From a virus (taxonomy: Duplodnaviria > Caudoviricetes), in the IMG/VR virus record IMGVR_UViG_3300033073_001248, positions 1 to 64,000 of that record: a stretch of DNA of 64,000 nucleotides. One strand, 5' to 3'. Position 1 is the first letter of the stretch; every line of letters starts with the position of its first letter. Positions 5,028-17,280 of the stretch are shown piece by piece. The position numbers and the translations under genes are program-made. The notes beneath the pieces were generated by a model. The model had not been told where the DNA came from. It was given only the letters and a program-made list of their open reading frames with translations, and ran no database searches.

Positions 5028-5036
5028 AACTCTATT

Positions 5037-5112
<76 letters not shown>

Positions 5113-5138
5113 ATTGTCAAAGTAGAATAAGAAAAAGA

Positions 5139-5167
5139 TTGCAGAAGGAATAAGAAGAAAGTATAAT
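5139..5167 (+). promoter_or_regulatory. sigma70-type promoter for tRNA-Leu(TAA)
   Basis: TTGCAG-N17-TATAAT. Confidence 0.7.
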
Positions 5168-5176
5168 AAAGATAAT

Positions 5177-5260
5177 GCGACTGTGGCGTAATGGTAGCCG
5201 CAAGGGACTTAAAATCCCTCGACTTCGGTCGTGCCGGTTCGAGTCCGGCCAGTCGCACCA
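5177..5260 (+). tRNA. tRNA-Leu (TAA)
   Basis: GCGACTG/CAGTCGC acceptor stem, CT-TAA-AA loop, long variable arm, CCA. Confidence 0.95.
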
Positions 5261-5269
5261 AATTTAATT

Positions 5270-5890
5270 ATGGAAATATTTGAATTAAACTTACCGTCGC
5301 CAAATATTAAAATTAAACAAAGATTGGATTATTTGGTTAGAACTGTTGAATTTGAACAGTCTGGTAAAATTTGGTTAAATGAGTTTCACCAAAATAAATT
5401 GAATTTAGCAGATTATAAATTTGCATCAGATCCTACTCTTACAAAGTTAGTAAATGATCAGTATTATAGTTTGTTTAAAATTGATTTTTTTGTTAGTTAT
5501 GGAATATTTAATGGTCAAAGTAGTTGTCACAGTCCACATATAGACCGAGCAAGAATGTTGGCTTTGAATTATTACTATACTTTGGGCGGCGAAAATGTAG
5601 AAACGGTTTTCTACAATAAAAAAACTGATAAAGGTTTAAGTCAAGCACAAAATTATAGATATGATGAACTAATTGCAACAACAAGATTTAAGTTTGAAGT
5701 TAATAAATGGTATGCTTATGAAGTTTCTAGGGCACACAGTGTAGAAAACATAAATGGTACAAGGATATTTTTAGCTATAATGTTGGGCAGTAAAACCATA
5801 ACTGATGAAAAATTAAATACTTACGCACTAGAAGATTTTGACAGTAATTATAAAAATTTTATCAGTAAGAGAATTTCAAATTTTGAATAG
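5270..5890 (+). CDS. putative 2OG-Fe(II)/cupin-fold (DSBH) protein
   Basis: PHID...LNYY...W...HSVEN gives an HxD...H triad; real ATG at 5270 (the ORF-track start lies inside the tRNA). Confidence 0.6.
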   Translation: MEIFELNLPSPNIKIKQRLDYLVRTVEFEQSGKIWLNEFHQNKLNLADYKFASDPTLTKLVNDQYYSLFKIDFFVSYGIFNGQSSCHSPHIDRARMLALNYYYTLGGENVETVFYNKKTDKGLSQAQNYRYDELIATTRFKFEVNKWYAYEVSRAHSVENINGTRIFLAIMLGSKTITDEKLNTYALEDFDSNYKNFISKRISNFE

Positions 5891-5924
5891 ATTTTTTGTA
5901 TTTTTACAACATTTTCAAAAAGAC

Positions 5925-5953
5925 TTGACAACAAAGACTAAATAACTTACAAT
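5925..5953 (+). promoter_or_regulatory. sigma70-type promoter driving the leader-peptide transcript
   Basis: TTGACA-N17-TACAAT; predicted start about 5960, 3-4 nt before ATG 5964; TAAATA lies in the spacer. Confidence 0.85.
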
Positions 5954-5963
5954 AGACACTGAT

Positions 5964-6107
5964 ATGAAAAACACGATTCATTGTTCATCCGTTAAACACA
6001 TAGCCCAACTAGGCGGCTTGATGCCCACCTATTGGAGTGCGTTTAGTCAGATTAATAATGATCGCACACCAGAGGTAACCGGGGTCCAGGAGGATCTTGT
6101 AGCGTAA
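5964..6107 (+). CDS. putative attenuator leader peptide (47 aa, all 20 amino acids)
   Basis: MKNTIHCSSVKHIAQLGGLMPTYWSAFSQINNDRTPEVTGVQEDLVA; its 3' end overlaps the 5' arm of an antiterminator. Confidence 0.65.
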   Translation: MKNTIHCSSVKHIAQLGGLMPTYWSAFSQINNDRTPEVTGVQEDLVA

Positions 6108-6139
6108 AAACAACACTACAAAGAATCTAGGACCCCAGG
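6079..6139 (+). promoter_or_regulatory. putative antiterminator hairpin
   Basis: GGGGTCC(6081-87) pairs with GGACCCC(6130-36); inner TTGTAG/CTACAA helix has the leader stop codon in its loop. Confidence 0.7.
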
Positions 6140-6166
6140 CTTAAACTCCCTGGGGTTTTTTGTTTT
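6131..6166 (+). terminator. intrinsic terminator (attenuator), mutually exclusive with the antiterminator
   Basis: ACCCCAGG(6132-39)/CCTGGGGT(6149-56) followed by TTTTTTGTTTT. Confidence 0.85.
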
Positions 6167-6179
6167 AGTAAAAGGAATT

Positions 6180-6341
6180 ATGAAACAGATCAACTTGAAA
6201 GAAAAAGCCAGACAAGTTCGTTGGACTACTGAGCATACACTAACCGACAGTCAGTTTAGAGATATTCTGACAAAAAAGTTAGCTAGAGCCGAGCAGTTCA
6301 AAAAACTTAACAAGCTAGTTCCACTAAAATTGAAATCATAA
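6180..6341 (+). CDS. small basic hypothetical protein (53 aa), first gene after the attenuator
   Basis: AAGGA SD; MKQINLKEKARQVRWTTEHTLTDSQFRDILTKKLARAEQFKKLNKLVPLKLKS. Confidence 0.6.
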   Translation: MKQINLKEKARQVRWTTEHTLTDSQFRDILTKKLARAEQFKKLNKLVPLKLKS

Positions 6342-6344
6342 TTT

Positions 6345-6491
6345 CAGCGTGACAAGGCAACGCGAGCCGGCACACAACGCTATATAAACTGTGACAAATG
6401 GGCGGACAGTTGGATGAAATGCTGGCGGTAACAGCAGAGTACAAATAACTGGGTGGGGTATAACCCCATCATATCCTCTCGTTTGAGAGGG
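6345..6491 (+). ncRNA. candidate structured ncRNA of unknown family
   Basis: GC-rich relative to flanks; AGCGT/ACGCT, CAGTT/AACTG, TGCTG/CAGCA, TGGGG/CCCCA and TCCTCTC/GAGAGGG helices. Confidence 0.5.
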
Positions 6492-6592
6492 TATTCTAAA
6501 ACACAGGGGATGAATAAACCGGCCGGCAGATTGATGAACTGTTGTGGCGGCTCCATTGATCGGTGCGAACAATACCCTTGTGTTTTAGAATA
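6492..6592 (+). repeat. carrier-stem element 1 (18-bp inverted repeat enclosing a structured insert)
   Basis: TATTCTAAAACACAGGGG ... CCCTTGTGTTTTAGAATA. Confidence 0.8.
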
Positions 6593-6595
6593 TTG

Positions 6596-6624
6596 TTGAC
6601 AAAGCCTGTATAGGCATATATAAT
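6596..6624 (+). promoter_or_regulatory. sigma70-type promoter for tRNA-Asn
   Basis: TTGACA-N17-TATAAT; near-palindrome GCCTGTATAGGC in the spacer. Confidence 0.9.
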
Positions 6625-6633
6625 AGAAGTTAT

Positions 6634-6709
6634 TCCGGGTGAGCAATCTAGGTGAAGGCGGCGGACTGTTAATCCGTGAAGCCTGGTTCGAATCCAGGAC
6701 CCGGAGCCA
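6634..6709 (+). tRNA. tRNA-Asn (GTT)
   Basis: TCCGGGT/ACCCGGA stem, CT-GTT-AA loop, GCCA end. Confidence 0.93.
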
Positions 6710-6764
6710 TTTTTATACGGTAGACATAAATAAATATATAAAATATTTAAAGGCACTCTACCGT

Positions 6765-7208
6765 ATGAATTACAAAGGCACGAAAGACAAAATTTATACT
6801 TGTCATCATTGTATGACAAAGTTTAATTTTAAAGGGTATAGTTCAAATCACAAATATTGTGGTTTGGAGTGTTTTTACGCAGATCAATCTGCAAAAAAAT
6901 TAAAAATAGAAGAACAGCGATACCAAGATTGGTTAGCTGGAAAAGATTTAGGGATAAAAAATCCAAGAAAGTTAATAAGAGAATTTCTTATTAAACGAGA
7001 TGGATACAAATGTGTTTGTTGTGGTATAGATAGTTGGAATGGAAAAACTATTACATTGTGGACTGACCATATAGATGGTGATGCTACAAATAATAGTCCA
7101 TCTAACTTTAGATTAATCTGTCCTAATTGTGATAGCCAATCTGATACATTCGGAGGCAAAAATTACGGTAAAGGAAGAAAGTCTAGGGGATTACCACAGT
7201 ACGGTTAG
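6765..7208 (+). CDS. free-standing HNH endonuclease with Zn-finger-like N-terminus
   Basis: CxxC motifs; DHIDGDATNN...NFRLICPNCDS; ATG at 6765. Confidence 0.85.
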   Translation: MNYKGTKDKIYTCHHCMTKFNFKGYSSNHKYCGLECFYADQSAKKLKIEEQRYQDWLAGKDLGIKNPRKLIREFLIKRDGYKCVCCGIDSWNGKTITLWTDHIDGDATNNSPSNFRLICPNCDSQSDTFGGKNYGKGRKSRGLPQYG

Positions 7209-7219
7209 ATAAAGTTTTT

Positions 7220-7302
7220 GCCCTGGTGGTGGAATGGTAGACACGACGGTCTTAGAAGCCGTTGCCAAAAGCGTGAGAGTTCGAGTCTCTCCTAGGGCAC
7301 CA
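7220..7302 (+). tRNA. tRNA-Leu (TAG)
   Basis: Cloverleaf, CT-TAG-AA loop, variable arm, CCA. Confidence 0.95.
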
Positions 7303-7310
7303 AGTTATTT

Positions 7311-7384
7311 GCGGGGTTCGTATAGTGGTAATACCTTAGCCTTCCAAGCTAAAGCGGAGAGTTCGATTCTCTTACCCCGCTCCA
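7311..7384 (+). tRNA. tRNA-Gly (TCC)
   Basis: GCGGGGT/ACCCCGC stem, CT-TCC-AA loop, TCCA end. Confidence 0.95.
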
Positions 7385-7387
7385 CTA

Positions 7388-7416
7388 TTGACATAGTCTA
7401 TATTAGACTATATAAT
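7388..7416 (+). promoter_or_regulatory. sigma70-type promoter with palindromic spacer
   Basis: TTGACA-N17-TATAAT; ATAGTCTA-TAT-TAGACTAT inverted repeat. Confidence 0.85.
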
Positions 7417-7434
7417 GTGATAAATGGTAATTAT

Positions 7435-7587
7435 ATGCCAATGTATGAAACAACTGTAAGAACACCACAAGGTGAAGAAAAGAAGCGAGTCTATGCGGAC
7501 ACACCGCAGGAAGCAAAAAAGCTTTTTGAACAACTGTATGGTGGTCCCAGAAATGTTCCATATATTCCACATATAATTCCTAGTTGA
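7435..7587 (+). CDS. small hypothetical protein (50 aa)
   Basis: MPMYETTVRTPQGEEKKRVYADTPQEAKKLFEQLYGG...; follows a promoter. Confidence 0.6.
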   Translation: MPMYETTVRTPQGEEKKRVYADTPQEAKKLFEQLYGGPRNVPYIPHIIPS

Positions 7588-7591
7588 TTAT

Positions 7592-7666
7592 CGCGGGTTG
7601 GAGAAGAGGTATCTCGGGAGTCTCATAAGCTCCAGATCGGCGGTTCGATTCCGTCACCCGCAACCA
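7592..7666 (+). tRNA. tRNA-Met (CAT), initiator-like
   Basis: C1:A72 mismatch, CT-CAT-AA loop, ACCA end. Confidence 0.85.
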
Positions 7667-7680
7667 TAAAAAGATGCTAA

Positions 7681-8592
7681 ATGAAAATTAATATATTAGA
7701 CAACGGTTGGACAGTAGAATTAACTGATATCAATTTAGCCAAGGCAACAAATGAAGAGTTGTATGAAATTGCTAAGTTAGTAGCAACTAATACTCTTGTG
7801 TTTGCTCGTAATCAAAAGTTTACTCCAGACGATGAAGTAAGGATTACTAAAACAATTGGTTTAATTGAAGATTTTAACCCTCATGCAGGACTACCTCCAG
7901 AGGACGGTCCCGGTATAAGTCCGCATCGTCGAACAGTGCCTCCTGAATCTAGACTAGCAGATAGAATTTTACCTGACAGCAATAATAAAATATTGCGAGT
8001 GACTGGAGAGCTAAACGAAAATAATGTTCCGGGTTTGTTTGGTCATAAATCTACATTAGATTGGCATGCGAATAGACCTTGGGATCCAAATAGATTGCCG
8101 GTAGTGTGGTTGTATGCAGAAAGAGGCAGCGTTGGCAGTGTAACCAGCTTTGCCAACGGAGTCTTGGCTTATCAAGACATGGATCAAGAGTTTAAGAATT
8201 TCATTAAAGACAAAACTACTATAAACGGCCATATTTTTAACAGTTACACTGAAGAAAATTACGGTTGGGGCAGGACAACAATTAATTATAACTATAAGGC
8301 TCCTGTTGTTTACACAAATAAACTAGGCGTTACAGGATTAAACTTTAGTTACTACCATATTCATCATTTTACAGATATGGCAATTAAAGATAGCGAAGAT
8401 TTAAAAAATCGAATTCATGAATGGTACACGCAACCTAAATACATTTATGATCATCATTGGCAGGACGGTGATGTTTTGCTTGCAGATCAATATTTGGGTA
8501 TTCATAAAAGATGGGCATTTGAAAATATGGAACAAAGAGTACTTCATAGAATTACTACCAGTTACGATAATTGTCCATGGATGAAACAATAA
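7681..8592 (+). CDS. TauD/TfdA-family 2OG-Fe(II) dioxygenase
   Basis: GLFGH...LDWHAN; C-terminal HHWQDGDVLLADQ..GIHKR...RVLHR. Confidence 0.8.
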   Translation: MKINILDNGWTVELTDINLAKATNEELYEIAKLVATNTLVFARNQKFTPDDEVRITKTIGLIEDFNPHAGLPPEDGPGISPHRRTVPPESRLADRILPDSNNKILRVTGELNENNVPGLFGHKSTLDWHANRPWDPNRLPVVWLYAERGSVGSVTSFANGVLAYQDMDQEFKNFIKDKTTINGHIFNSYTEENYGWGRTTINYNYKAPVVYTNKLGVTGLNFSYYHIHHFTDMAIKDSEDLKNRIHEWYTQPKYIYDHHWQDGDVLLADQYLGIHKRWAFENMEQRVLHRITTSYDNCPWMKQ

Positions 8593-8605
8593 GTATATTA
8601 AATTA

Positions 8606-8681
8606 GGATCCTTAGCTCAGTTGGTAGAGCGGCACGTTTACACCGTGTAGGTCGGCAGTTCGAGACTGTCAGGATCCACCA
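8606..8681 (+). tRNA. tRNA-Val (TAC)
   Basis: GGATCCT/AGGATCC stem, TT-TAC-AC loop, CCA. Confidence 0.95.
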
Positions 8682-8686
8682 AAATT

Positions 8687-8764
8687 CGGAGTTTAGCGCA
8701 GTCTGGCTAGCGCATCTGCTTTGGGAGCAGAGGGTCGGGGGTTCGAATCCCTCAACTCCGACCA
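8687..8764 (+). tRNA. tRNA-Pro (TGG)
   Basis: CGGAGTT/AACTCCG stem, TT-TGG-GA loop, CCA. Confidence 0.95.
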
Positions 8765-8777
8765 ATTTTAAATTTAT

Positions 8778-9401
8778 ATGATATTACCTCGTTCATTCTA
8801 TTTTAGTAATTTTGTAAGACTTGGATTAGTTTGGTTCCCGCATTACAATATGATGAAACCACAGTTTACAAGCAACGGGAATCCAGTTTATGATGCACAT
8901 AATCAAACTGGATTTGTTGACCTAAATTTTGCATTAAAATTTATTGAACATCCCCGATTAGCAGATATAATTTTACAACAACGAAAAGAAGTTTTTGATT
9001 TAATGAAAAATATAGAGTGGTCTGGCTCTCCTAAAAGATATAAAACTTCTTTGATAATTCATGCACCCTCTGTGACAACCGAACCGCATTATCATTTCCC
9101 TACTACAAAAAATATATTAGTATATGGATATTCAGTCCCTAGTTGCGAAGAGGACCAACTATTAACAGACACAACAGGGTATGTCGAAGCCAATAATGGC
9201 ACAATATATGATTTTAAGGTAAACAAAAAGTTCATATTAAATATGGACAATGTAGGTAGTCCACACCGTGCCTATTCTAAAGATTGGAAATTTTACTGGG
9301 CTACTGATTATCATGACGAATATCTAACTTATGTTCCTAGAGAAGCAAGGGGAGATTTTGCAAAGCTCAGCGATGATGCTTTCCAATCAATAATTCAATG
9401 A
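8778..9401 (+). CDS. hypothetical protein, possible cupin/DSBH fold
   Basis: 207-aa AT-rich ORF; IHAP..TEPHYH ... PHRA histidine pattern. Confidence 0.5.
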   Translation: MILPRSFYFSNFVRLGLVWFPHYNMMKPQFTSNGNPVYDAHNQTGFVDLNFALKFIEHPRLADIILQQRKEVFDLMKNIEWSGSPKRYKTSLIIHAPSVTTEPHYHFPTTKNILVYGYSVPSCEEDQLLTDTTGYVEANNGTIYDFKVNKKFILNMDNVGSPHRAYSKDWKFYWATDYHDEYLTYVPREARGDFAKLSDDAFQSIIQ

Positions 9402-9423
9402 ATAAACTAATTAAGGAAAAAAC

Positions 9424-9591
9424 ATGACTTGTCGCGGATATGATTCAAAAGCAGTATTAATTAAAAAACCCATTAAAACATTGGCAGCTACTATTAAAGA
9501 TCCGCACAAGCGTGGTGCATTTATTCGCGACTATGTTCGTGCTGCTCAAGCAAACTTGATTAACAGCAAGCGACGCCGAGAGCAAGATTAA
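9424..9591 (+). CDS. small basic hypothetical protein (55 aa)
   Basis: AAGGA SD; MTCRGYDSKAVLIKKPIKTLAATIKDPHKRGAFIRDYVRA... Confidence 0.65.
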   Translation: MTCRGYDSKAVLIKKPIKTLAATIKDPHKRGAFIRDYVRAAQANLINSKRRREQD

Positions 9592-9597
9592 TCAATC

Positions 9598-9672
9598 GGG
9601 GGATTGGTGCTAACGGGAACACGGTGGCTTTGCAAGCCTCAGTTAAGGGTTCGATTCCCTTATCCTCCACCA
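9598..9672 (+). tRNA. tRNA-Ala (TGC)
   Basis: GGGGGAT/ATCCTCC stem with G3:U70, TT-TGC-AA loop, CCA. Confidence 0.9.
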
Positions 9673-9676
9673 ATAA

Positions 9677-10336
9677 TTATAAGTCTATAATAGGCTTGAA
9701 TATTTCTACAGCCTGTTCCCATGATGAGATTTGAGATGTGTCAAATCTCACACTGATACCAATTCTATTAGACTTTTGTGATTCAAATTCAATGCTATGA
9801 GGTACTTCGGTTCTCACAAGATAACATTGTGTGGGATTAACTGTTAATGTTTCCAATACATCGTAGGTATCAAAGTAAGGGTCAGGATAAAGATCGCGAC
9901 TATAACTTTTATATCTTTGATTATAATGAATACTGCCATTTAACCCTCTTGGATATTCATAGTATCCGCTGTCCTGTTCAGGATAAAATTCTTCACTGTT
10001 TTTAACGTCTAACCAACGCCAAGAAGCCTTGCTGTCGGTTATCTCCCAATTTATTCCACATGGAATTTTTACCCACTTGTTGTCTACTAGAGTTATATCA
10101 GTATGCACAAGAGTCTTACCTGATGAAACTGTGGGTAGTCCAATAATTAAAGCCTGCGTAGGTTTTACTCCCAAATGAGAAAATTTTTCCATTAATTCTG
10201 GAGATAAAATTTCTTCTAAGTTAGTGTGAGTAAGACCGTACCATTTTACTGTTTCATTTAGTACATCTAAAGTTGTATTTTTTGTAAGAGGAAAAGGCAA
10301 ATTTAATGGATAGTAATATTTCATAAAATTTTTCAA
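9677..10336 (-). CDS. putative 2OG-Fe(II)/cupin-fold protein, antisense to the tRNA array
   Basis: LVHTD...GINW...LVRTEVPHSIE..R..ISVRF; same motif spacing as 5270-5890. Confidence 0.6.
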   Translation of the reverse strand: MKNFMKYYYPLNLPFPLTKNTTLDVLNETVKWYGLTHTNLEEILSPELMEKFSHLGVKPTQALIIGLPTVSSGKTLVHTDITLVDNKWVKIPCGINWEITDSKASWRWLDVKNSEEFYPEQDSGYYEYPRGLNGSIHYNQRYKSYSRDLYPDPYFDTYDVLETLTVNPTQCYLVRTEVPHSIEFESQKSNRIGISVRFDTSQISSWEQAVEIFKPIIDL

Positions 10337-10344
10337 AATTATTT

Positions 10345-10419
10345 AGCCGCGTAGCTCAGAGGAAGAGCAACGTCTTGATAAGGCGTAGGCCGACATTTCG
10401 AAACTGTCCGCGGCTACCA
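10345..10419 (+). tRNA. tRNA-Ile (GAT)
   Basis: AGCCGCG/CGCGGCT stem, TT-GAT-AA loop, CCA. Confidence 0.9.
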
Positions 10420-10431
10420 AACAAAATCAAT

Positions 10432-10506
10432 GGTGTCCATAGTTTAGTGGCAAAACCGCGGGTTGTGATTCCGCTATCATGAGTTCGATTCTCATTGGAT
10501 ACCCCA
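10432..10506 (+). tRNA. tRNA-His (GTG)
   Basis: G-1 and C73, TT-GTG-AT loop, CCA. Confidence 0.93.
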
Positions 10507-10510
10507 ATAT

Positions 10511-10586
10511 GCTGCTTTAGCTGATGTGGTCATAGCACCGGTCTGAAGAACCGAGGAACCTGGTTCGATCCCAGGAGGCAGCACCA
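10511..10586 (+). tRNA. tRNA-Phe (GAA)
   Basis: GCTGCTT/AGGCAGC stem, CT-GAA-GA loop, CCA. Confidence 0.93.
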
Positions 10587-10592
10587 TACATG

Positions 10593-10667
10593 ACCGCCAT
10601 CGTATAATGGATAATACACGAGGCTACGAACTTCGGAATTGTGGTTCGATTCCATATGGCGGTACCA
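10593..10667 (+). tRNA. tRNA-Arg (ACG)
   Basis: ACCGCCA/TGGCGGT stem, CT-ACG-AA loop, CCA. Confidence 0.92.
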
Positions 10668-10672
10668 AACAA

Positions 10673-10765
10673 GGAAGCGTTAGCCGAATCGGCATAGCGG
10701 CAACTGTCTTGAAAACAGAGGGCCCAGAAATGGGTGTGTGAGTTCGAGTCTCACCGCTTCCGCCA
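10673..10765 (+). tRNA. tRNA-Ser (TGA)
   Basis: GGAAGCG/CGCTTCC stem, CT-TGA-AA loop, long variable arm, GCCA end. Confidence 0.93.
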
Positions 10766-10794
10766 TTGACATTAAATATTTTTACTGTTATAAT
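10766..10794 (+). promoter_or_regulatory. sigma70-type internal promoter
   Basis: TTGACA-N17-TATAAT. Confidence 0.85.
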
Positions 10795-10802
10795 AGATTC
10801 AT

Positions 10803-10891
10803 GGAGAGTGGGCAGGATGGTAATGCAGCAGATTGCTAATCTGTCATCGGATTAAACCGATGAGTGGGTTCGATTCCCACACTCTCCGCCA
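10803..10891 (+). tRNA. tRNA-Ser (GCT)
   Basis: GGAGAGT/ACTCTCC stem, TT-GCT-AA loop, long variable arm, GCCA end. Confidence 0.95.
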
Positions 10892-10897
10892 AATAAA

Positions 10898-10971
10898 GTC
10901 TCGCAAGTGTTACGGCAGCACATCAGTCTCCAAAACTGAGGGCCGGGGTTCGACTCCCTGGCGGGACGCCA
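10898..10971 (+). tRNA. tRNA-Trp (CCA)
   Basis: CT-CCA-AA loop, cloverleaf, GCCA end. Confidence 0.92.
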
Positions 10972-10977
10972 ACTAAT

Positions 10978-11055
10978 GCACCGATGGCAGAGCGGCCCAA
11001 TGCAAGGGATTGCAAATCCCTAAAACCGTAGGTTCAAATCCTACTCGGTGCTCCA
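10978..11055 (+). tRNA. tRNA-Cys (GCA)
   Basis: GCACCGA/TCGGTGC stem, U73, TT-GCA-AA loop. Confidence 0.93.
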
Positions 11056-11065
11056 TATAATTTTT

Positions 11066-11141
11066 AGAAGTGTAGCATAGCGGCTAATGCGCCACCTTCA
11101 TACGGTGTTTATCGTGAGTTCGAGCCTCACCACTTCTACCA
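11066..11141 (+). tRNA. tRNA-Met (CAT), elongator-like
   Basis: Fully paired AGAAGTG/CACTTCT stem, TT-CAT-AC loop, CCA. Confidence 0.85.
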
Positions 11142-11143
11142 AA

Positions 11144-11303
11144 TTTCGGGATAGACGGTAGTTTTGAGTCCTGGTCAATCTAGCCACAGTGGAATCAACT
11201 GCGGCGACACTATAGTATGATTGATTGGTAGCAAGAGCTTGACTATTCGAGACAAGCATAGTTCGGAGTATGCGGTGTAAAAGCCGGAACTATGTTCCCG
11301 AAA
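11144..11303 (+). ncRNA. candidate structured ncRNA between tRNA-Met and tRNA-Gln
   Basis: Closed by TTTCGGGA/TCCCGAAA; internal CATAGTTC/GAACTATG, GCTTG/CAAGC and CAGT/ACTG helices. Confidence 0.6.
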
Positions 11304-11313
11304 ATCTATCTGT

Positions 11314-11387
11314 TGGGGGATAGTTAAATGGTATAACCACGGATTTTGATTCCGTTATTCTTGGTTCGATTCCAAGTCCCTCTGCCA
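11314..11387 (+). tRNA. tRNA-Gln (TTG)
   Basis: TT-TTG-AT loop, weak 1:72 pair, GCCA end. Confidence 0.9.
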
Positions 11388-11425
11388 ATAACTTTTGTTG
11401 TTAACAGGGTTTTGTAAATATTATC

Positions 11426-12949
11426 ATGCAATACGAATTGAAAAAACTTTTTATAGGCAACAACACAACTGATACTGATTTAAAGGTGTCAATACAATCA
11501 GACTTGTTACAAACTAAAAATCATGGATTAATTTCAGATTCAAACTTTATACCTGATAAGAATGGATTTTATCACACATCAGTTACTGATTTGTCAATTG
11601 GCGAAATAATTAAAATTTCTAAATATTTTGATGAAATTGAAATGTTAGATCAACCACGGGATGAATGGACTCACCAAAAATCTTTGTTGTCAACATTTAA
11701 GCTAATGTGTGAACTTGAAAAAATAGGCCGCAATACAAAATTTAGAACTAATAAAAATATTATTGGGTTTGGTGAATTTGAAGATTTTTTAAATCAAAAT
11801 AAAAGTTTTTGCATTTATCCTTGGATTAATTTTGTAATGGAAAATAGTAAAAATTTACAACTGTGTGCAAGATCTGGACTTGTAGTAACACAAGTAGATA
11901 AACTCCAAGATTGGGTTAATGACAAACATTTTAACACAATAAGAAATAAAATGTTAGCGGGCCAGTCAATGGGACATGCTTGCCAAGTTTGCTATAACTA
12001 TGAAGCAATTGGTGCAGAAAGTTATAGACAGTATGATACGCGAGAGTGGTTAAATCAATTAGAAATTAAAAATTTAAGTGATTTAAAAAAAATTGAAAAT
12101 CCATATTATTACGAAATAAGGTTATCTAATAAATGTAATGCTATGTGTAGAGGTTGTCGCCCGTCCTACAGTCATCTAATAGAAAAAGAAGCTAGAAAAT
12201 TTAATATTGTACATGACAAAGGAAATTTTAAACCTGCTTATCCTAGTATTAACAATATAAATGTATCTACATTAACAAACAAACACCGAGTTTATTTGAC
12301 TGGTGGCGAACCAACTATAATGTCAGAAGTATTAAAATTTATGGAAAATTGTATTGATCAAAATAAAACTGATTTTGAGCTTACAATGAGTACTAACGGT
12401 GAAAAGTTTAGTGCTAAATTCCTAAAATTGTCTGAATCCTTTTCTAATATGAATTTTAGCTTTAGTTTAGATGGCTACGGCAAAATTAATGATTATTGGC
12501 GTTGGGGAACAAATTGGGATAACATAGTAAAAAACATGAAGTTATGCCAACGAATGGGGCATTCTGTCCAAATTAACACTGTTCCGGGAATTTATAATGT
12601 TACAAATTTACATTTGTTATATGAATTTTTAGATAAAGAATTCCCACTTACTACAGTGTATCTGCAATTAAATTATTTAGAAAAATTTAATACATTTAAT
12701 CATCCAAATAGAAAATTAGTTGTAGAAAGTATGGAAAAATGTAAACAAACAAAAGTATATCATTCGGACGGAAAAAGTAATAAAACTGTAATTGATTCAA
12801 TATACGATTATTATATAAAGAATCCAACCCCTGATATTTCACTACTTAAACAATTTTTTGATTTTAACGATCAACTTGATCGTGCAAGAAATTCTAAGTT
12901 GGGTGATTATATACCAGAATTAGAAGCTTGCAGACAATATATTTTGTAG
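11426..12949 (+). CDS. radical SAM protein with twitch/SPASM-like Cys-rich segment
   Basis: CNAMCRGC (CxxxCxxC), LTGGEP, STNG, FSLDG; upstream CIYPW...C...CxxC. Confidence 0.88.
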   Translation: MQYELKKLFIGNNTTDTDLKVSIQSDLLQTKNHGLISDSNFIPDKNGFYHTSVTDLSIGEIIKISKYFDEIEMLDQPRDEWTHQKSLLSTFKLMCELEKIGRNTKFRTNKNIIGFGEFEDFLNQNKSFCIYPWINFVMENSKNLQLCARSGLVVTQVDKLQDWVNDKHFNTIRNKMLAGQSMGHACQVCYNYEAIGAESYRQYDTREWLNQLEIKNLSDLKKIENPYYYEIRLSNKCNAMCRGCRPSYSHLIEKEARKFNIVHDKGNFKPAYPSINNINVSTLTNKHRVYLTGGEPTIMSEVLKFMENCIDQNKTDFELTMSTNGEKFSAKFLKLSESFSNMNFSFSLDGYGKINDYWRWGTNWDNIVKNMKLCQRMGHSVQINTVPGIYNVTNLHLLYEFLDKEFPLTTVYLQLNYLEKFNTFNHPNRKLVVESMEKCKQTKVYHSDGKSNKTVIDSIYDYYIKNPTPDISLLKQFFDFNDQLDRARNSKLGDYIPELEACRQYIL

Positions 12950-13014
12950 TACATTAGTTATACTAGACTAATATTACAAATCCTGTTATAATACTATTTT
13001 AAGGAGTTTGCACT

Positions 13015-13155
13015 ATGCAACGAAAACTGATCGTCAAGCAGCGTAACCGCTTCGTTGTCTTGGCTTTGATGAGAAAAGCGGGCGTACATCGCAAGACCAA
13101 TAAAGCCTTGCGTAGAAAAGACAATGCGTCCTTAGCTCAGTTGGTAGAGCAGTAG
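13015..13155 (+). CDS. small basic protein (46 aa) whose last 10 codons overlap tRNA-Lys
   Basis: AAGGAG SD; MQRKLIVKQRNRFVVLALMRKAGVHRKTNKALRRKDNASLAQLVEQ; promoter TAGACT-N17-TATAAT at 12964-12992. Confidence 0.6.
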   Translation: MQRKLIVKQRNRFVVLALMRKAGVHRKTNKALRRKDNASLAQLVEQ

Positions 13156-13201
13156 ACTTTTAATCTATTGGTCGGGAGTTCAAATCTCCCAGGGCGTACC
13201 A
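13126..13201 (+). tRNA. tRNA-Lys (TTT)
   Basis: CT-TTT-AA loop, cloverleaf, CCA. Confidence 0.95.
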
Positions 13202-13278
13202 TATAAAAACACACTTTGCACGGTAGGAGCCCGTCCCAAGGTACATCGGGTAGAGAGGATAGTGTGTTTTTATATGGT
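13198..13278 (+). repeat. carrier-stem element 2 (perfect 18-bp inverted repeat starting at the tRNA-Lys ACCA)
   Basis: ACCATATAAAAACACACT ... AGTGTGTTTTTATATGGT, 45-nt insert. Confidence 0.9.
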
Positions 13279-13347
13279 AGCAATACCAGAGGCTGCGATT
13301 CCGACAGATCGTGATCGGATAGGAACTCCACCGCCTCAAAGGGTGGA

Positions 13348-13468
13348 ACCATATAAAAACACATTGGAGAAGAGACTCCATAACACCCGGGAAGGTTATG
13401 GTTTGACGGCACAGACTAGGAGGTACAGTAATGTATCGGCGATGCTTGCCAGTGTGTTTCTATATGGT
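13348..13468 (+). repeat. carrier-stem element 3
   Basis: ACCATATAAAAACACATTGG ... CCAGTGTGTTTCTATATGGT, about 81-nt insert. Confidence 0.88.
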
Positions 13469-13628
13469 ACAAGACTGTTCTATGGGCACTGCAATGAACA
13501 TAGACAGGTTGCGTGGTGTTGCCGGAAGCACGGTGAAGCGAGTACGCAGAGTTGAAGTCCTTGCAGGGATGGATGAGTTGCTGAAAACGGATCAGGTACA
13601 GGTTCGAATCCTGTAGCATTTATTTGTT

Positions 13629-13757
13629 GCCATATTGAAACATATTCATCATTGGTCGTTGGCCTCGAGAGGTTGGTAGCCTGGACCACACGACGAAGCA
13701 GCCTAACCAGCGCGATGAAAAGTCCTATAGTAGGACGAGAATGTGTTTCAATATGGT
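13629..13757 (+). repeat. carrier-stem element 4
   Basis: GCCATATTGAAACATATTC ... GAATGTGTTTCAATATGGT, about 91-nt insert. Confidence 0.88.
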
Positions 13758-13785
13758 AGACAAATATTCCTATATTTGTTATAAT
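13757..13785 (+). promoter_or_regulatory. sigma70-type promoter for tRNA-Glu
   Basis: TAGACA-N17-TATAAT; ACAAATA/TATTTGT inverted repeat across the spacer. Confidence 0.7.
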
Positions 13786-13837
13786 ATACACATGTTAAGA
13801 AATTAACATTGTTCTTTAAAAATTAAATGGCAATTAT

Positions 13838-13912
13838 GCTCGGTTCGTCTATCGGTTAGGACGCTGGCCTTTCACGCCGGAAAGAGGGGTTCGACTCCCC
13901 TACCGAGTACCA
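13838..13912 (+). tRNA. tRNA-Glu (TTC)
   Basis: CT-TTC-AC loop, cloverleaf, CCA. Confidence 0.93.
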
Positions 13913-14024
13913 TATAGAAACGCATTCAACGGCTTCGTGGATACCTAGCAACTGGACGCAGGGGCTATCCCAAAGAGTAGGCATACCGCCGTAAAGCTAG
14001 GGCAAGAGTGTGTTTCTATATGGT
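13909..14024 (+). repeat. carrier-stem element 5 (starts at the tRNA-Glu ACCA)
   Basis: ACCATATAGAAACGCATTC ... GAGTGTGTTTCTATATGGT, about 78-nt insert. Confidence 0.88.
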
Positions 14025-14030
14025 AATTAT

Positions 14031-14115
14031 GGATGAGTAGGAAAATTGGTAACCCCAGGAGACTGTAAATCTTCCGCCTCTGGCATTGTTGGTTCAAGTC
14101 CAACCTCATCCACCA
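14031..14115 (+). tRNA. tRNA-Tyr (GTA)
   Basis: GGATGAG/CTCATCC stem, CT-GTA-AA loop, variable arm, CCA. Confidence 0.95.
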
Positions 14116-14332
14116 AGAATGCACACCGTCGCTTTACGGTGTGGCGGGACGGCTTCCCCGATTGCAATCGGATCCACGAAGTGGGCTTACGAGCGCCTCT
14201 CAAACCGCAACTAGAGTTCTCCGCAAGAGAACATAGCACAAATTCTTATAAGAAGAAAGCGCTCGCCTTGCGCCAGTGCGGGGAATAATGAGAAAGAACG
14301 GGGTACAAGTCCCAAGCGTTGGTACAAATTTT

Positions 14333-14409
14333 GGTTCCATAGTATAGCCTGGTAATTACAGCGGCTTGTCACGCCGTCAACAGGGGTTCGAATCCCCTTG
14401 GGACCGCCA
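14333..14409 (+). tRNA. tRNA-Asp (GTC)
   Basis: TT-GTC-AC loop, GCCA end. Confidence 0.95.
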
Positions 14410-14543
14410 AGTTTTGTCATGGTGTAATGAGAATGCATGGGATCGCCACATAAGTCTATGCCGAAGGGCAACACTAATATTTTGGTGCAATAGCGGTGGA
14501 TGTGAGGTTCAGGTGTGGTAAAAACCCACAACGACATACAAGT

Positions 14544-14754
14544 TTCGTAAGTGTCAGCAAGAGAAAGTCACGCTATAAAGGTTTCTTCGAAGGACTGATA
14601 TAGTAAAAGGTGACGGGTTCGACTCCCGGCCGCTCGCATGAGCGGTGCAGATGGTTGCTAACTGGACCGGTATCCCAAGTGGCGTACCGAGTCCCGCTAG
14701 CTAAACCGGAGAAGGGTGAATGGTGTCTATAATGATGGTGACACTACTTACGAA
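14544..14754 (+). ncRNA. candidate ~210-nt structured ncRNA with a T-arm-like hairpin
   Basis: Closed by TTCGTAAGT/ACTTACGAA; GTCAC/GTGAC, CGGG-TTCGACT-CCCG, CCGCTC/GAGCGG and GGTA/TACC helices. Confidence 0.6.
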
Positions 14755-14764
14755 TTTATTTTAT

Positions 14765-14860
14765 GCCCCTGTAGTTTAATGGTAGAACTCTGAGCTTATA
14801 CCTCAGCTTATGCCGCCAGATTAGCGGATGGTGCAGGTTCGAATCCTGCCGGGGGTACCA
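14765..14860 (+). tRNA. atypical tRNA with TAT anticodon (nominal Ile) and a long variable arm
   Basis: CTGAG-CTTATAC-CTCAG anticodon arm, about 25-nt variable region with CCGC/GCGG stem, canonical T arm, ACCA end. Confidence 0.75.
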
Positions 14861-14883
14861 AATATTTTGGACAACAAAGTCCG

Positions 14884-14912
14884 TTGACAATTAATGTAAA
14901 AGATAATACAAT
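14884..14912 (+). promoter_or_regulatory. sigma70-type promoter for the large ncRNA
   Basis: TTGACA-N17-TACAAT. Confidence 0.85.
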
Positions 14913-14918
14913 AGATAC

Positions 14919-15809
14919 TTAGGGCAGTTTATTGTCCTGTTAGGCGGCTTGCCGTTTAACGAAGAATAAGTGCAGTGATGCACCCAAAGGAGGTAAGCCT
15001 ACGCAACTCCGCTGGCAACAGTTCGTGTAAACAAGCCTGCTCACTACCGCGAGGTAGCGTTCACTGAAAAAACCGGTGGATGTAACAGCAAAGCTGATGT
15101 AGTGGAAAGAACGGTGATCGACTAGCCCGCAAGGGAACTAGGGTCAGCGGAAAGTAACAGGTGGTGCTGACTTCACTACAAAACCAATCAGTTAGTTGGT
15201 ATGAGAAAGGGTAGTGTTAGGATCCGAGGTGTCGCAACCAAGGGTTCTAGCGCAATGTTAATGGTCAGTGGCACCGTCGTGAGACAGTGACACAGGTCGT
15301 GAAACATTACTGAGTAGACCGCGAGTCAAAAGGTATTTGGTGAGTTGTATACTGTATGCCAAAAGCATATGGAGCAACTGAGGCAGCTCATCAAGGTAGG
15401 TTGCAACGTAGATCAATTGGTAGATCGTCTGTCTTCTAAACAGGATGTTGCGGGTTCAAATCCCGCCGTAATAAAAATGCAAAGACTGCCTCGGTTATCG
15501 GTGAAAAGCATCTAATGCTTGACACGCAAGTGAATCAAGTCCGCGGAGGCTCGCAAGGCTGAAGTGGTTTGTACTGGAAGTTTCGTAAGGTGTTAGCGCA
15601 CTTGAATGGCTCGCAAGGTCAACGGAGAATAAGGTACAGAGTAGCTGATAACGACTGGCCTACTGCCTGGCCATAAAAACGGCGATGCTGGTAACAGACT
15701 AGGTTACATAGTGATATGGACTTAGTGGATGTCGAGAGAAGCTGTGCTCGCAAGGTGCAGTATAATGCTCGAGGTGTTACTGGCTAAAGTGTAATCTCAG
15801 CTTTAGCAC
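14919..15809 (+). ncRNA. GOLLD-like large ornate RNA
   Basis: About 890 nt with no ORF in the track; own promoter; dense hairpins with many CGCAAG loops; GGTGGTGCTG, TGAGTAG, AAAGACTGCCTC and 3' TAATCTCAGC recalled from GOLLD; next to tRNAs. Confidence 0.75.
15402..15474 (+). tRNA. tRNA-Arg(TCT)-like domain embedded in the GOLLD-like RNA
   Basis: Intact D (GATC/GATC), anticodon (CT-TCT-AA) and T (GCGGG-TTCAAAT-CCCGC) arms; acceptor stem has 2 mismatches and no CCA. Confidence 0.75.
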
Positions 15810-15871
15810 TATTCTAAAACACATTACTAAGAGTCCAGGTTAAGAGCGTGGCATAGTGTGTTTCAGAATAG
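15809..15871 (+). repeat. carrier-stem element 6
   Basis: CTATTCTAAAACACATTA ... TAGTGTGTTTCAGAATAG, 27-nt insert. Confidence 0.8.
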
Positions 15872-15889
15872 TCTTCGATAGGAGTCTCT

Positions 15890-16264
15890 ATGAAAATCAC
15901 AGAAGATCAATTTAGGTTTGAGTGGTTTTCCGGTACAGGTAAAGGTGGGCAACATCGCAACAAACACCAAAACTGTTGCCGTTGCATACATGAACCAACT
16001 GGAATTACTGCTAACGGCACTGCCAGTCGTAGTCGCGAAGATAATAAACTAGCGGCATACAATACTTGCAGAGCTAGAGTGGCTGCACACTTTCACAAAG
16101 ACAAAGAGCGTGGCCTTGCAGGTACAGAACGAATTCGTACATATCATGAACCCGACAACAGAGTTGTTGATCACGCCAGTGGCTTGACTGACACTTACAC
16201 TAATGTCGTAGTAAAAGGTGATATAGAGGATATGATCACTGCTCGCGCACGAGCAGTTAGATAA
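15890..16264 (+). CDS. minimal class-I release-factor-like peptidyl-tRNA hydrolase (GGQ domain; ArfB/PrfH-like)
   Basis: SGTGKGGQHRNK..C.RCIHEPTGI; C-terminal ERIRTYHEPDNRVVDH resembles the RF1/RF2 C-terminus; AGGAG SD. Confidence 0.85.
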   Translation: MKITEDQFRFEWFSGTGKGGQHRNKHQNCCRCIHEPTGITANGTASRSREDNKLAAYNTCRARVAAHFHKDKERGLAGTERIRTYHEPDNRVVDHASGLTDTYTNVVVKGDIEDMITARARAVR

Positions 16265-16268
16265 GAAC

Positions 16269-16465
16269 GTGCCGCTTAATCAACGGCTAGTCCGACCCGG
16301 ACGATAGGAAGTGGCTTGATCACCACGGGTGGTAGTCTTTAAACCAAAAGGCCGCTGGCAATGCGATAACGGTCCCGGTCGGGAAGCGGGTGGAGGCTGT
16401 GCGTGATGGGGTTGGGGTTTCCTGGCTCTTGATGCAGTATAATTACCGCCGCGGGGCGCAGAGCA
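16269..16465 (+). ncRNA. candidate GC-rich structured ncRNA
   Basis: High GC relative to flanks, no ORF in the track; TCCGACCCGG/CCGGTCGGGA, GTGG/CCAC and GCGGGTGG/TTACCGC pairings. Confidence 0.5.
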
Positions 16466-16669
16466 TTATTTTTGCTGTTCTTTTAATAGTTCTATGCGAT
16501 TTAAAATCACTTCTCTAGCATAGAAATCGTCGTGAAGTAAATACATTAGTAGAGCAGTCAAGATGCCCCTTTGGTAAGCTAAAAGCTCGCCCGAAGATGA
16601 AAACAATTTTTTATTAGTATATAAATCTAAGTATTCATTTATAGTATCAAATGCTTCTTGATTGGTCAT
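16466..16669 (-). CDS. hypothetical protein (67 aa)
   Basis: AT-rich ORF inserted antisense within the array. Confidence 0.5.
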   Translation of the reverse strand: MTNQEAFDTINEYLDLYTNKKLFSSSGELLAYQRGILTALLMYLLHDDFYAREVILNRIELLKEQQK

Positions 16670-16686
16670 ACTTTATTTAATTAATT

Positions 16687-16761
16687 GCCCTGTTAGTTCT
16701 AGTGGTAAAACATCGGTTTTGTAATCCGAGGTCGGGTGTTCGATTCACCCCCAGGGCACCA
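16687..16761 (+). tRNA. tRNA-Thr (TGT)
   Basis: TT-TGT-AA loop, cloverleaf, CCA. Confidence 0.9.
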
Positions 16762-16843
16762 TAAACAGTGTACAGGCACTTTTCAAATCCTGTCTTTGTG
16801 TGTTACCGAGCATTGCTCCTACTCGGAAGAGTATCGGTATAAT

Positions 16844-16917
16844 GCGGGATTAGTTTATTGGTAAAACAGAACCTTGCCAAGGTCCAGTGACCAGTTCGAT
16901 TCTGGTATCCCGCTCCA
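16844..16917 (+). tRNA. tRNA-Gly (GCC)
   Basis: GCGGGAT/ATCCCGC stem, TT-GCC-AA loop, TCCA end. Confidence 0.93.
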
Positions 16918-16923
16918 TTTAAT

Positions 16924-16998
16924 CCGTCCTTAGTTCAATGGATAGAATACCGTGCTTCGAACTCGGGGGTGGAGGTTCGATTCCTTCAGGACGGGCCA
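16924..16998 (+). tRNA. tRNA-Arg (TCG)
   Basis: CCGTCCT/AGGACGG stem, CT-TCG-AA loop, GCCA end. Confidence 0.9.
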
Positions 16999-16999
16999 G

Positions 17000-17194
17000 T
17001 CAATAACTGTCTGTGCCTCTTACACTACCCCAATAGTTTTTCATATCAACTGTAAGTTTAGGCCAGTCTTCAACTGTTTCAGCCTTAAACTCAGCGACCT
17101 TAGGTTTTGCATCAGCCACAAATTCATAGTCTTGACTTTGCCGGCCTGTATATTGAGCTGTAAACTCTTTTGTTATTGTCCATGGTGTAAACAT
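17000..17194 (-). CDS. hypothetical protein (64 aa)
   Basis: ORF exactly fills the gap between two tRNAs. Confidence 0.5.
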   Translation of the reverse strand: MFTPWTITKEFTAQYTGRQSQDYEFVADAKPKVAEFKAETVEDWPKLTVDMKNYWGSVRGTDSY

Positions 17195-17204
17195 ACAGTA
17201 TTTA

Positions 17205-17279
17205 CTCGCCGTAGTTCAGTGGATAGAACAAGACACTCCTAAGGTCAAAACGGCTGTTCGATTCAGCCCGGCGAGACCA
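17205..17279 (+). tRNA. tRNA-Arg (CCT)
   Basis: CTCGCCG/CGGCGAG stem, CT-CCT-AA loop; weak anticodon stem; CCA. Confidence 0.82.
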
Positions 17280-17280
17280 T

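Follow-up and report, generated by a model that had tools for sequence, protein, structure and literature searches.

A constant stem with changeable inserts at tRNA and tmRNA ends in phage RNA operons

Why would a phage place the same stem around unrelated sequences, over and over, inside an array of transfer RNA (tRNA) genes? The question is raised by a 64,000-nucleotide stretch of DNA (the window) that comprises positions 1 to 64,000 of IMG/VR record IMGVR_UViG_3300033073_001248, a giant freshwater phage of the Caudoviricetes (Duplodnaviria). The source contig is an 85.7-kb fragment of an uncultured virus and represents approximately 16% of the estimated genome (CheckV). Its region from 5.0 to 17.4 kb holds 31 tRNA genes, a GOLLD RNA and several other GC-rich noncoding stretches, all on the + strand, and six inverted repeats lie in the same array. 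An earlier reading of the letters, here called the sequence-only reading, had proposed that the repeats are modular RNA elements in which one helix brackets a series of different small RNAs. The comparative evidence described below supports such a modular, RNA-level stem with a variable insert that is transcribed together with tRNAs. We favor, with moderate confidence in the proposal as a whole, a model wherein the hairpins serve as excised 'punctuation' spacers in phage operons for tRNAs and noncoding RNAs (ncRNAs), are probably cut by host RNase III, and exchange their inserts in the manner of cassettes.

Six hairpins and the family to which they belong

All six inverted repeats were found at the coordinates first reported for them. 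Their stems are 18 to 21 base pairs (bp) long and carry no more than one mismatch each. The elements are listed below, with a z-score for the fold of each and, for the first, its minimum free energy (MFE).

6492-6592, + strand: element 1; arms 6492-6509/6575-6592; 65-nt insert; MFE -38.7 kcal/mol, z -5.66
13198-13278, + strand: element 2; arms 13197-13215/13261-13279; 19-bp stem, all Watson-Crick; 45-nt insert; z -4.28
13348-13468, + strand: element 3; arms 13348-13367/13449-13468; insert of ~83 nt; z -4.02
13629-13757, + strand: element 4; arms 13629-13647/13739-13757; 91-nt insert; z -5.32
13909-14024, + strand: element 5; arms 13908-13927/14006-14025; 78-nt insert; z -4.97
15809-15871, + strand: element 6; arms 15808-15826/15854-15872; 27-nt insert; z -4.58

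Each element folds into a stem-closed structure (z from -4.0 to -5.7), and none of 200 shuffled versions folds as well. A pattern for the right arm has 10 matches in the window against an expectation of 3.7 +/- 2.0, a number reached by none of 100 shuffles. A motif-blind scan for stems of at least 14 bp in positions 4000-19000 revealed no second family of long hairpins, and the rest of the 85.7-kb contig holds no seventh copy.

On the tRNA-sense strand, all six copies share the core AAAC-R-Y-A-Y-U/A-R-U-G-U-G-U-U-U of a 19-bp stem, whose positions we number from the base. Element 1 is the divergent copy. It has the outer stem UAUUCU/AGAAUA and the core AAAACACA/UGUGUUUU, and it departs from the others at positions 17-18, where its top pairs are G.U and G-C rather than U.G and U-A. 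This copy is located behind a structured ncRNA and ahead of the promoter of tRNA-Asn. Element 3 has A.C at position 9 and U.G at position 17, element 4 carries the variant UUGAAAC/GUUUCAA with G-C at position 9, and element 5 has G-C at position 9, G.U at 14 and U.G at 17. In element 6, which is placed between GOLLD and the ribosome-binding site of a gene for a GGQ protein, the outer stem CUAUUCU/AGAAUAG is joined to a canonical core with A.C at position 9, U.G at 17 and U-A at 18.

The stem is widespread. An exact scan of IMG/VR with the right-arm pattern (14 specified bases) identified at least 120 viral loci. Counts over these loci and their elements, here and below, are among the matches listed. 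Most right-arm loci have a complementary left arm 40-220 nt upstream, and 87 of 121 loci include tRNA genes, which number 1350 in total. When the right-arm scan is combined with the tmRNA and cargo scans described below, the stem is carried by at least ~170 different viral contigs, which include both small fragments and complete genomes of 162-364 kb. The same pattern applied to 596 Gb of bacterial and archaeal genomes yields only single matches, at the level expected by chance for 14 bases, and the sole exception is in the bacterial scan, a 1.5-kb contig binned with a Planktophila metagenome-assembled genome (MAG). The family is seen only in phages, nearly always inside tRNA arrays.

Searches of existing resources returned little. 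Alignment of positions 13100-16000 and of element 5 to GenBank phage records by blastn gave tRNA matches only, or none. Rfam 15, including its models for ribozymes, riboswitches and Y RNAs, has nothing that reaches the gathering score for the hairpins or inserts of the window and 16 related loci; the sole hit on the hairpins is DUF805b (17.6 bits, E = 0.65). A full-text search of the literature, which did not include the two original papers on two-piece tmRNA, found no description of the hairpin family. A reusable module of constant sequence that exchanges its cargo in cassette-like fashion therefore appears to be undescribed in print, and the kind of element to which it belongs, an excised spacer or RNase III-type stalk, is already known.

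The pattern of variation in the stem reveals the molecule on which selection acts. After orienting elements by the nearest tRNA, the consensus stem has A-C-C-A with U-G-G-U at positions 1-4, U-A-U at positions 5-7, and AAACACAYU with ARUGUGUUU at positions 10-18, whereas positions 8 and 19 covary freely. Pairs other than Watson-Crick occur at positions 1, 3, 12, 14, 15 and 17. All are G.U or U.G in the tRNA sense, and the same pairs read on the opposite strand are A.C mismatches. Thus, selection acts on the RNA made from the tRNA strand.

Because the first sample had been fetched through the arm itself, the covariation analysis was repeated without this ascertainment bias on 27 distinct orthologues of element 5 that were retrieved with a pattern for the insert only. 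Pairing holds in 94% of cells of this set, and both sides have changed in 16 of 25 pairs. None of 500 shuffles reaches any of the measures, and sliding one partner by 1-3 columns lowers pairing to 26-52%. All 27 sequences have U-A at position 18 and A-U at position 16; 20 of them have U.G at position 17, and 18 leave position 9 unpaired. The proposal that the helix is under selection, made originally from differences among the six copies, is thereby borne out by compensatory changes among orthologues and by strand-specific wobbles.

Terminal inverted repeats, many copies per genome and the recurrence of the same cargo in different genomic contexts are also features of DNA-level elements. Such an element might be a transposon resembling a miniature inverted-repeat transposable element (MITE) or an attC-like site whose hairpin acts in DNA, with any effects on RNA being incidental. 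An inert MITE-like element is an alternative that the sequence-only reading had itself raised. We consider a DNA-level explanation highly improbable. No target-site duplications are present, with counts at chance for every boundary tested, and the G.U mismatches are on one strand only. Copies occur solely on the sense strand of RNA operons, where they abut the ends of mature RNAs to the nucleotide, and orthologous copies evolve by compensatory change. Bacterial chromosomes hold no copies beyond chance single matches and the one tiny MAG contig. Integron attC sites were tried separately as a candidate identity and set aside. Their core is RYYYAAC/GTTRRRY, and arms of the type AAAAAC/GUUUYU have pyrimidines where purines are due after GTT.

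Hairpins at the ends of tRNAs and two-piece tmRNAs

The elements are tied to the ends of tRNAs. Of 133 elements, 65 begin precisely at the A73-CCA of a tRNA, which is tRNA-Lys(UUU) for 34 of them and tRNA-Glu(UUC) for 8. At the other end, a tRNA starts -2 to +9 nt from the right arm in approximately 55 of the 133, and 24 of these tRNAs begin on the right-arm GGU. Elements with a tRNA on both sides number 35. In the window, the following features adjoin the hairpins.

13126-13201, + strand: tRNA-Lys(UUU), whose A73-CCA forms stem positions 1-4 of element 2
13279-13351, + strand: CCA-ended non-tRNA module, a terminal hairpin and then the ACCA that opens element 3
13469-13632, + strand: CCA-ended module with a T-arm (ACAGGUUCGAAUCCUGU) and the terminus UUGCCA, whose CCA opens element 4
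13838-13912, + strand: tRNA-Glu(UUC), whose A73-CCA forms stem positions 1-4 of element 5
15337-15803, + strand: 3' part of the GOLLD RNA (Rfam match, 215.6 bits), ending 5 nt ahead of element 6

Two elements were said at the outset to start on the ACCA of a tRNA, and these are element 2 (tRNA-Lys, end at 13201) and element 5 (tRNA-Glu, end at 13912). Elements 3 and 4 likewise begin on CCA at the ends of the two non-tRNA modules (ACCA at 13348 and GCCA at 13629), so that four of the six copies in the window begin on ACCA or GCCA. Past the right arm of element 5, tRNA-Tyr begins after 6 nt. The abutment of element 6 to the 3' end of GOLLD, also noticed at the outset, holds as well, and the related locus L114 has the same arrangement, with GOLLD ending at 3098 and the element starting at 3102.

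The linkage between tRNA-Lys and its hairpin, as seen for element 2, recurs in 33 other phage contigs. The stems of these 33 copies are near-identical while the median identity of the tRNA-Lys sequences is 71%.

Some details of this region bear on the modules between the hairpins. The module at 13279-13351 folds weakly on its own (z -1.0), and its start (GCAAUACCAGA) is found again behind right arms in two other loci (L083 and L095). The module at 13469-13632 is identified neither as a tRNA nor as a transfer-messenger RNA (tmRNA) by ARAGORN and Rfam. The right arm of element 2 (13261-13279) is perfectly complementary over 16 bp to the left arm of element 3 (13348-13363), and these adjacent elements could adopt an alternative fold that spans the module between them. 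Just past element 4, GACAAAU (13759-13765) is complementary to AUUUGUU (13619-13625) ahead of GCCA. Element 4 might therefore interrupt a permuted gene, and a chance match in AT-rich sequence is also possible.

The same stem is present in genes for phage two-piece tmRNAs. Scanning 16 related loci with Rfam revealed permuted tmRNA genes in L027 (13937-14332) and L114 (754-1160). The first matches beta_tmRNA with 137 bits and tmRNA_permuted with 120 bits, and ARAGORN reports a tmRNA with the tag peptide ATAANDEIFALAA; the second scores 98 bits. Both have the acceptor-piece terminus GGUCCACCA followed by one nucleotide, AAACACAUU, an insert, AGUGUGUUU, a few nucleotides and the 5' acceptor strand GGGCC.... 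A scan of viral loci for TCCACCA, 1-8 nt and AAACACAYU gave, among the matches listed, 66 in which the right arm is present. In 55 of the 66, a heptamer 3-5 nt past the right arm pairs perfectly with the seven bases ahead of the discriminator to form a 7-bp acceptor stem. The scan yielded 45 distinct intervening sequences. This link to the tmRNA intervening sequence is a new finding of the present analysis.

The location is informative for function. Mature two-piece tmRNA lacks the segment that runs from CCA to G1 in a permuted gene (PMC11915505), and the stem is therefore positioned in a stretch that has to be eliminated. In the tmRNA version, 2-200 nt separate the two cores, with many loops of 5-8 nt and one third of no more than 9 nt, and one copy behind a tRNA-Lys also has a loop of 5 nt. 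Because the stem occurs with loops this small, the stem itself is the functional unit and the cargo is optional. The initial description of the stem as mainly a 'carrier' of inserts is accordingly not tenable.

Permuted tmRNA genes are present in 118 of 121 sampled alphaproteobacterial genomes, one of them unpublished and represented here by no sequence of its own, and the Rfam tmRNA models leave the intervening region unstructured. Among the cellular alphaproteobacterial intervening sequences, the six read by eye (from 32 fetched loci) lack the AAACACAYU/ARUGUGUUU core. These sequences are short and variable, some show pairing with CCA, and lengths can be 6-10 nt. The window has no tmRNA, and its six hairpins do not lie between the acceptor and coding pieces of a tmRNA gene. 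As a separate observation, permuted two-piece tmRNA genes are common in contigs of uncultured phages (at least 55; L027, L114 and loci L243-L356), and many have an alphaproteobacterial-type T-loop (GGCGGUACC), a possible clue to the host group.

Likeness to T7 RNase III sites and the proposed excision

What could remove such a spacer? The determinants described for Escherichia coli RNase III are a U-A/U.G distal box, A-U-type pairs at positions 2-4 of the proximal box, and an 11-bp helix above the cut (PMC1540722). We fetched the T7 genome and compared its RNase III sites with the family stem in register. The distal box, the A-U pairs at proximal-box positions 2-3 and the 11-bp helix recur in the same register in the family stem, as the stepwise alignment with T7 R1.1 from the top of the helix indicates.

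Step 1: T7 R1.1 C-G; family N-N
Step 2, distal box 1: T7 R1.1 U-A; family U-A
Step 3, distal box 2: T7 R1.1 U.G; family U.G
Step 4: T7 R1.1 A-U; family A-U
Step 5: T7 R1.1 C-G; family C-G
Step 6: T7 R1.1 U.G; family A-U
Step 7: T7 R1.1 G-C; family C-G
Step 8, proximal box 1: T7 R1.1 G-C; family A-U
Step 9, proximal box 2: T7 R1.1 A-U; family A-U
Step 10, proximal box 3: T7 R1.1 A-U; family A-U
Step 11, proximal box 4: T7 R1.1 C.U; family position 9

Substrates of the R1.1 type have a helix of approximately 20 bp, no fewer than 11 bp of which lie above the cut; the stem here measures 19 bp, and its positions 9-19 provide the 11 bp. In the distal box, position 18 is U-A in 122 of 131 copies and position 17 is U.G in 78 of 131, being otherwise C-G or U-A. 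Five of the six window copies have a U-A/U.G distal box 8 bp above proximal-box position 4. The proximal box of such substrates reads G-C, W-W, A-U, W-W. In the family, proximal-box positions 2-3 are A-U/A-U and fit, position 1 is A-U or A.C, and position 4 is a mismatch or A-U in many copies and G-C in others. This last position corresponds to stem position 9, which in copies after tRNA-Lys is a mismatch in 28 of 33, formed by four base combinations and never G-C. The weak pair there mirrors the weak pair that T7 R1.1 has at proximal-box position 4, 8 bp below its U.G. Moreover, the 3' strand of the tmRNA version, AGUGUG(C/U)UU(A/U)UGAU, is close to the T7 strand GAGUGGCCUUUAUGAU, which is cut within UAU/GAU. 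The determinants are reportedly common to the RNase III enzymes of E. coli and Bacillus subtilis (PMC11780869). The match to T7 sites and the linkage to tRNA ends together support the early suggestion that the stem may be an RNase III-type processing site tied to the 3' ends of tRNAs, a suggestion to which the tmRNA link gives an anchor.

In the model we favor, the six hairpins would be transcribed within polycistronic tRNA/ncRNA operons of the phage. Each spacer would then be cut from the precursor, which would free the CCA 3' end of the preceding RNA and leave a short 5' leader on the next. Host RNase III would be the probable nuclease, recognizing determinants of the T7 R1.1 type, with cuts expected between stem positions 8/9 and 7'/6'. 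For the tRNA version this would leave a 4-nt trailer on the tRNA that exonucleases might trim, and the leader would be taken off by RNase P. For the tmRNA version a cut in the T7 register would fall directly 3' of CCA, +/-1 nt. Excision would set the inserts free as small RNAs of 51-115 nt, each capped by its stem, and the constant stems might supply the sequence homology for swapping inserts and neighboring genes between phages. Products predicted for the window from the T7 register are as follows.

6498-6588: predicted product of element 1, 91 nt
13206-13272: predicted product of element 2, 67 nt (predicted cuts 13205/13206 and 13272/13273, +/-1 nt)
13356-13462: predicted product of element 3, 107 nt
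13637-13751: predicted product of element 4, 115 nt
13917-14018: predicted product of element 5, 102 nt
15816-15866: predicted product of element 6, 51 nt

Several observations weigh against this model. The stem departs from T7 R1.1 at three pairs (positions 12-14). At proximal-box position 1, where G-C is preferred, the family has A-U, and the minimal tmRNA spacers have A.C. Of 131 copies, 47 (elements 4 and 5 included) have G-C at position 9, and G-C at proximal-box position 4 suppresses cleavage by the E. coli enzyme as a catalytic antideterminant (PMC1540722). Element 1 lacks the U.G/U-A top. The determinants are those of E. coli RNase III and may not be the preferences of the host enzyme. 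Cellular alphaproteobacterial two-piece tmRNA genes use intervening sequences as short as 6 nt, and thus excision as such needs no RNase III. Finally, the stem sequence is more conserved than RNase III is known to require, which therefore leaves room for a dedicated protein partner.

The short cellular spacers raise the prospect that tRNA enzymes do all of the work. RNase P would process the tRNA that follows, and CCA would be handled by RNase Z, RNase E or exonucleases. The long stem would then protect the small RNA from exonucleases and keep neighboring domains folding independently. This explanation accommodates the coincidence of element boundaries with tRNA ends, and excision of the intervening sequence has been attributed to 'tRNA processing enzymes' (PMC11915505). 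It also fits the cellular intervening sequences of 6-10 nt, which lack a helix large enough for RNase III. However, both CCA and the following RNA's leader are base-paired within one continuous helix in the phage elements, and thus RNase P and 3' exonucleases should be hindered until it opens. The register-specific U-A/U.G pairs, the position-9 mismatch and the T7-like 3' strand would also be left unexplained. We therefore judge processing by tRNA enzymes alone to be unlikely.

Still less probable, in our estimation, is that a dedicated sequence-specific protein, either made by the phage or supplied by the host and distinct from RNase III, binds or cleaves the stem. Examples would be a particle like that of Ro and Y RNA, a Cas6-like endoribonuclease or an enzyme of the Mini-III type. 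Such a partner might explain why the stem is more conserved than the linked tRNA-Lys, and a constant closing stem with variable tops resembles the architecture of Y RNAs. However, no candidate partner was found. No TROVE domain was found in the contig, which covers only approximately 16% of the estimated genome, the Rfam models for Y RNAs have no match, and Pfam and PHROGs identify a homing HNH enzyme as the only nuclease among the open reading frames (ORFs) of the array. The RNase III domain PF14622 was not found in 30 viral records, 5 of which are complete genomes (PF00636 was not run), which also implies that the RNase III of the favored model would be the host's.

Inserts, neighboring genes and relation to known systems

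The six inserts of the window are unrelated to one another and are richer in GC than the contig (49-58% versus 39.8%), as the sequence-only reading had stated. Its further description of the inserts as structured applies to some conserved RNAs, such as those of elements 4 and 5, and does not hold for every insert of the family, where folding is only slightly better than that of shuffles (mean z -0.40). Homologues of the element 4 insert in L073 and L043 have stems with compensatory changes. The ends (ACAUUACUA...GCAUAGUGU) and length of the element 6 insert are shared with L015, L027 and L100.

The element 5 insert (13928-14005) is a conserved pseudoknotted RNA of ~80 nt with the invariant core GCAACUGGACGCAGGGGCUAU, and it is represented by 27 distinct phage sequences (L390-L422). 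Both the ACGGC/GCCGT helix and the CCTAGC/GCTAGG pseudoknot proposed for it are present. The pseudoknot is 95.6% paired across the 27 homologues, with A-U replaced by G-C nine times. This insert has no match in Rfam.

Cassette-like exchange of cargo is seen among the phages. The 33 copies behind tRNA-Lys carry unrelated inserts, with only 3 of 528 pairs exceeding 70% identity. The insert in the tmRNA gene of L114 has the same sequence as the insert behind tRNA-Lys in L043, and, depending on the phage, the cargo of element 5 is found behind tRNA-Glu, tRNA-Val or tRNA-Leu. The simplest explanation of this turnover would be exchange through the constant stems.

The functions of the released RNAs invite speculation. 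Roles as decoys or antitoxins had been suggested, but these find no support. For each insert, the longest antisense match in the contig spans 9-11 nt, which does not exceed that of shuffled inserts, and Rfam has no match; nor does the stem depend on cargo. A more ambitious and quite tentative proposal, which we would not rate above a possibility worth pursuing, is that the stem is the universal adaptor of a phage 'RNA cassette' system. It would act as RNase III excision signal, end-protecting cap and recombination homology at once, shuffling more than 100 small structured RNAs among the tRNA spacers, tmRNA intervening sequences and flanks of GOLLD in unrelated phages. The cargos, such as the pseudoknotted RNA of element 5 (at least 27 contigs), would be functional effectors, for example binders or decoys of host factors for translation or defense, present at tRNA-like abundance during infection.

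Expression of the region was examined with assembled contigs from four freshwater or riverine metatranscriptome runs. Across 12950-16300 these cover relatives of GOLLD and generic parts of tRNAs. The hairpins are uncovered, and because the data are contigs only, this speaks neither for nor against hairpin expression or ends. Positions 14966-15750 are covered at very high depth by contigs from the four runs. Because of this coverage, the transcribed GOLLD RNA probably reaches ~370 nt beyond the 5' boundary of the Rfam match. In some RNA contigs, a junction of 15405 with 15473 skips or replaces the embedded tRNA-Arg(UCU).

Protein-coding genes are interspersed with the RNAs. The ORFs of the array have Pfam and PHROGs matches to HNH endonuclease, TauD, radical SAM, RF-1 domain, dual-specificity phosphatase (DSP) and phosphoesterase. 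The HNH homing-endonuclease ORF at 6765-7208 (PHROGs E = 2.7e-23) is located directly behind tRNA-Asn, in parallel to segB of the T4 tRNA cluster. A small basic ORF with a ribosome-binding site (13015-13155) meets no stop codon before it enters tRNA-Lys, whose first position is 13126. Processing of this tRNA by RNase P would turn the ORF transcript into a nonstop messenger RNA. Identification of this ORF as ArfA is unsupported, and it has no Pfam match. The RNA island is flanked by a stand-alone RF-1/GGQ-domain protein of 124 amino acids (15890-16264), a DSP-like protein (17689-18180) and a phosphoesterase (18811-19398), which may have functions in translation rescue or RNA-end healing. In a related phage contig, a group I intron resides in the tRNA array (L001:926-1123, Rfam 56.9 bits).

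The maturation of tRNA arrays in large phages is largely unstudied, and the family suggests that many uncultured freshwater and marine phages punctuate their tRNA transcripts with one reusable module. The two-piece tmRNA link offers a testable answer to the question of how the intervening sequence of phage tmRNA is excised. The stem also flags more than 100 unstudied phage small RNAs that it delimits, at least one of which has a conserved pseudoknot. A compact natural 'cut here' adaptor placed beside tRNAs might find use in multiplexed RNA expression and, if the assignment to RNase III is true, the family would constitute a large natural data set on substrate determinants beyond E. coli.

Among known systems, the sites of T7 (R1.1, R0.5, R18.5 and others) and the minimal uR1.1 (PMC1540722) are likewise hairpins in polycistronic phage transcripts. 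They share with the family U-A/U.G followed by A-U and C-G, A-U/A-U at proximal-box positions 2-3, and the 3' strand AGUG..CUU(U)AUGAU. In contrast to T7, the helix here extends 8 bp further below the presumed cut and takes in the CCA of the tRNA, and its top bears inserts of up to ~225 nt rather than a tetraloop; cleavage is predicted from the resemblance.

The stable RNAs of T4 had been offered as a loose precedent, and this comparison applies in part. Species 1 and 2 (rnaC and rnaD) are non-tRNA small RNAs that are co-transcribed and processed with phage tRNAs. T4 rnaC bears a T-arm and rnaD ends in CCA, and in these respects they resemble the CCA-ended modules between the hairpins (13279-13351 and 13469-13632). 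They do not resemble the hairpins, with which they share neither sequence nor closing stem.

Another known system is the intervening sequence of permuted tmRNA genes (RF04321, RF01849 and RF01850). It also starts directly after CCA and pairs with it, stops a few nucleotides short of where the following RNA piece begins, and is missing from the mature RNA. This intervening sequence belongs to the stem family in at least 55 viral contigs. The window copies differ in that they follow tRNAs, CCA-ended modules, GOLLD and another ncRNA.

A last parallel is provided by the RNase III stalks of ribosomal RNA operons and the excised intervening sequences of 23S ribosomal RNA, in which a structured RNA is enclosed by a long leader-trailer helix and freed when that helix is cut. 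The hairpin family shares the long bracketing helix, and differs in that one constant sequence is reused many times within each genome around unrelated small RNAs or around none.

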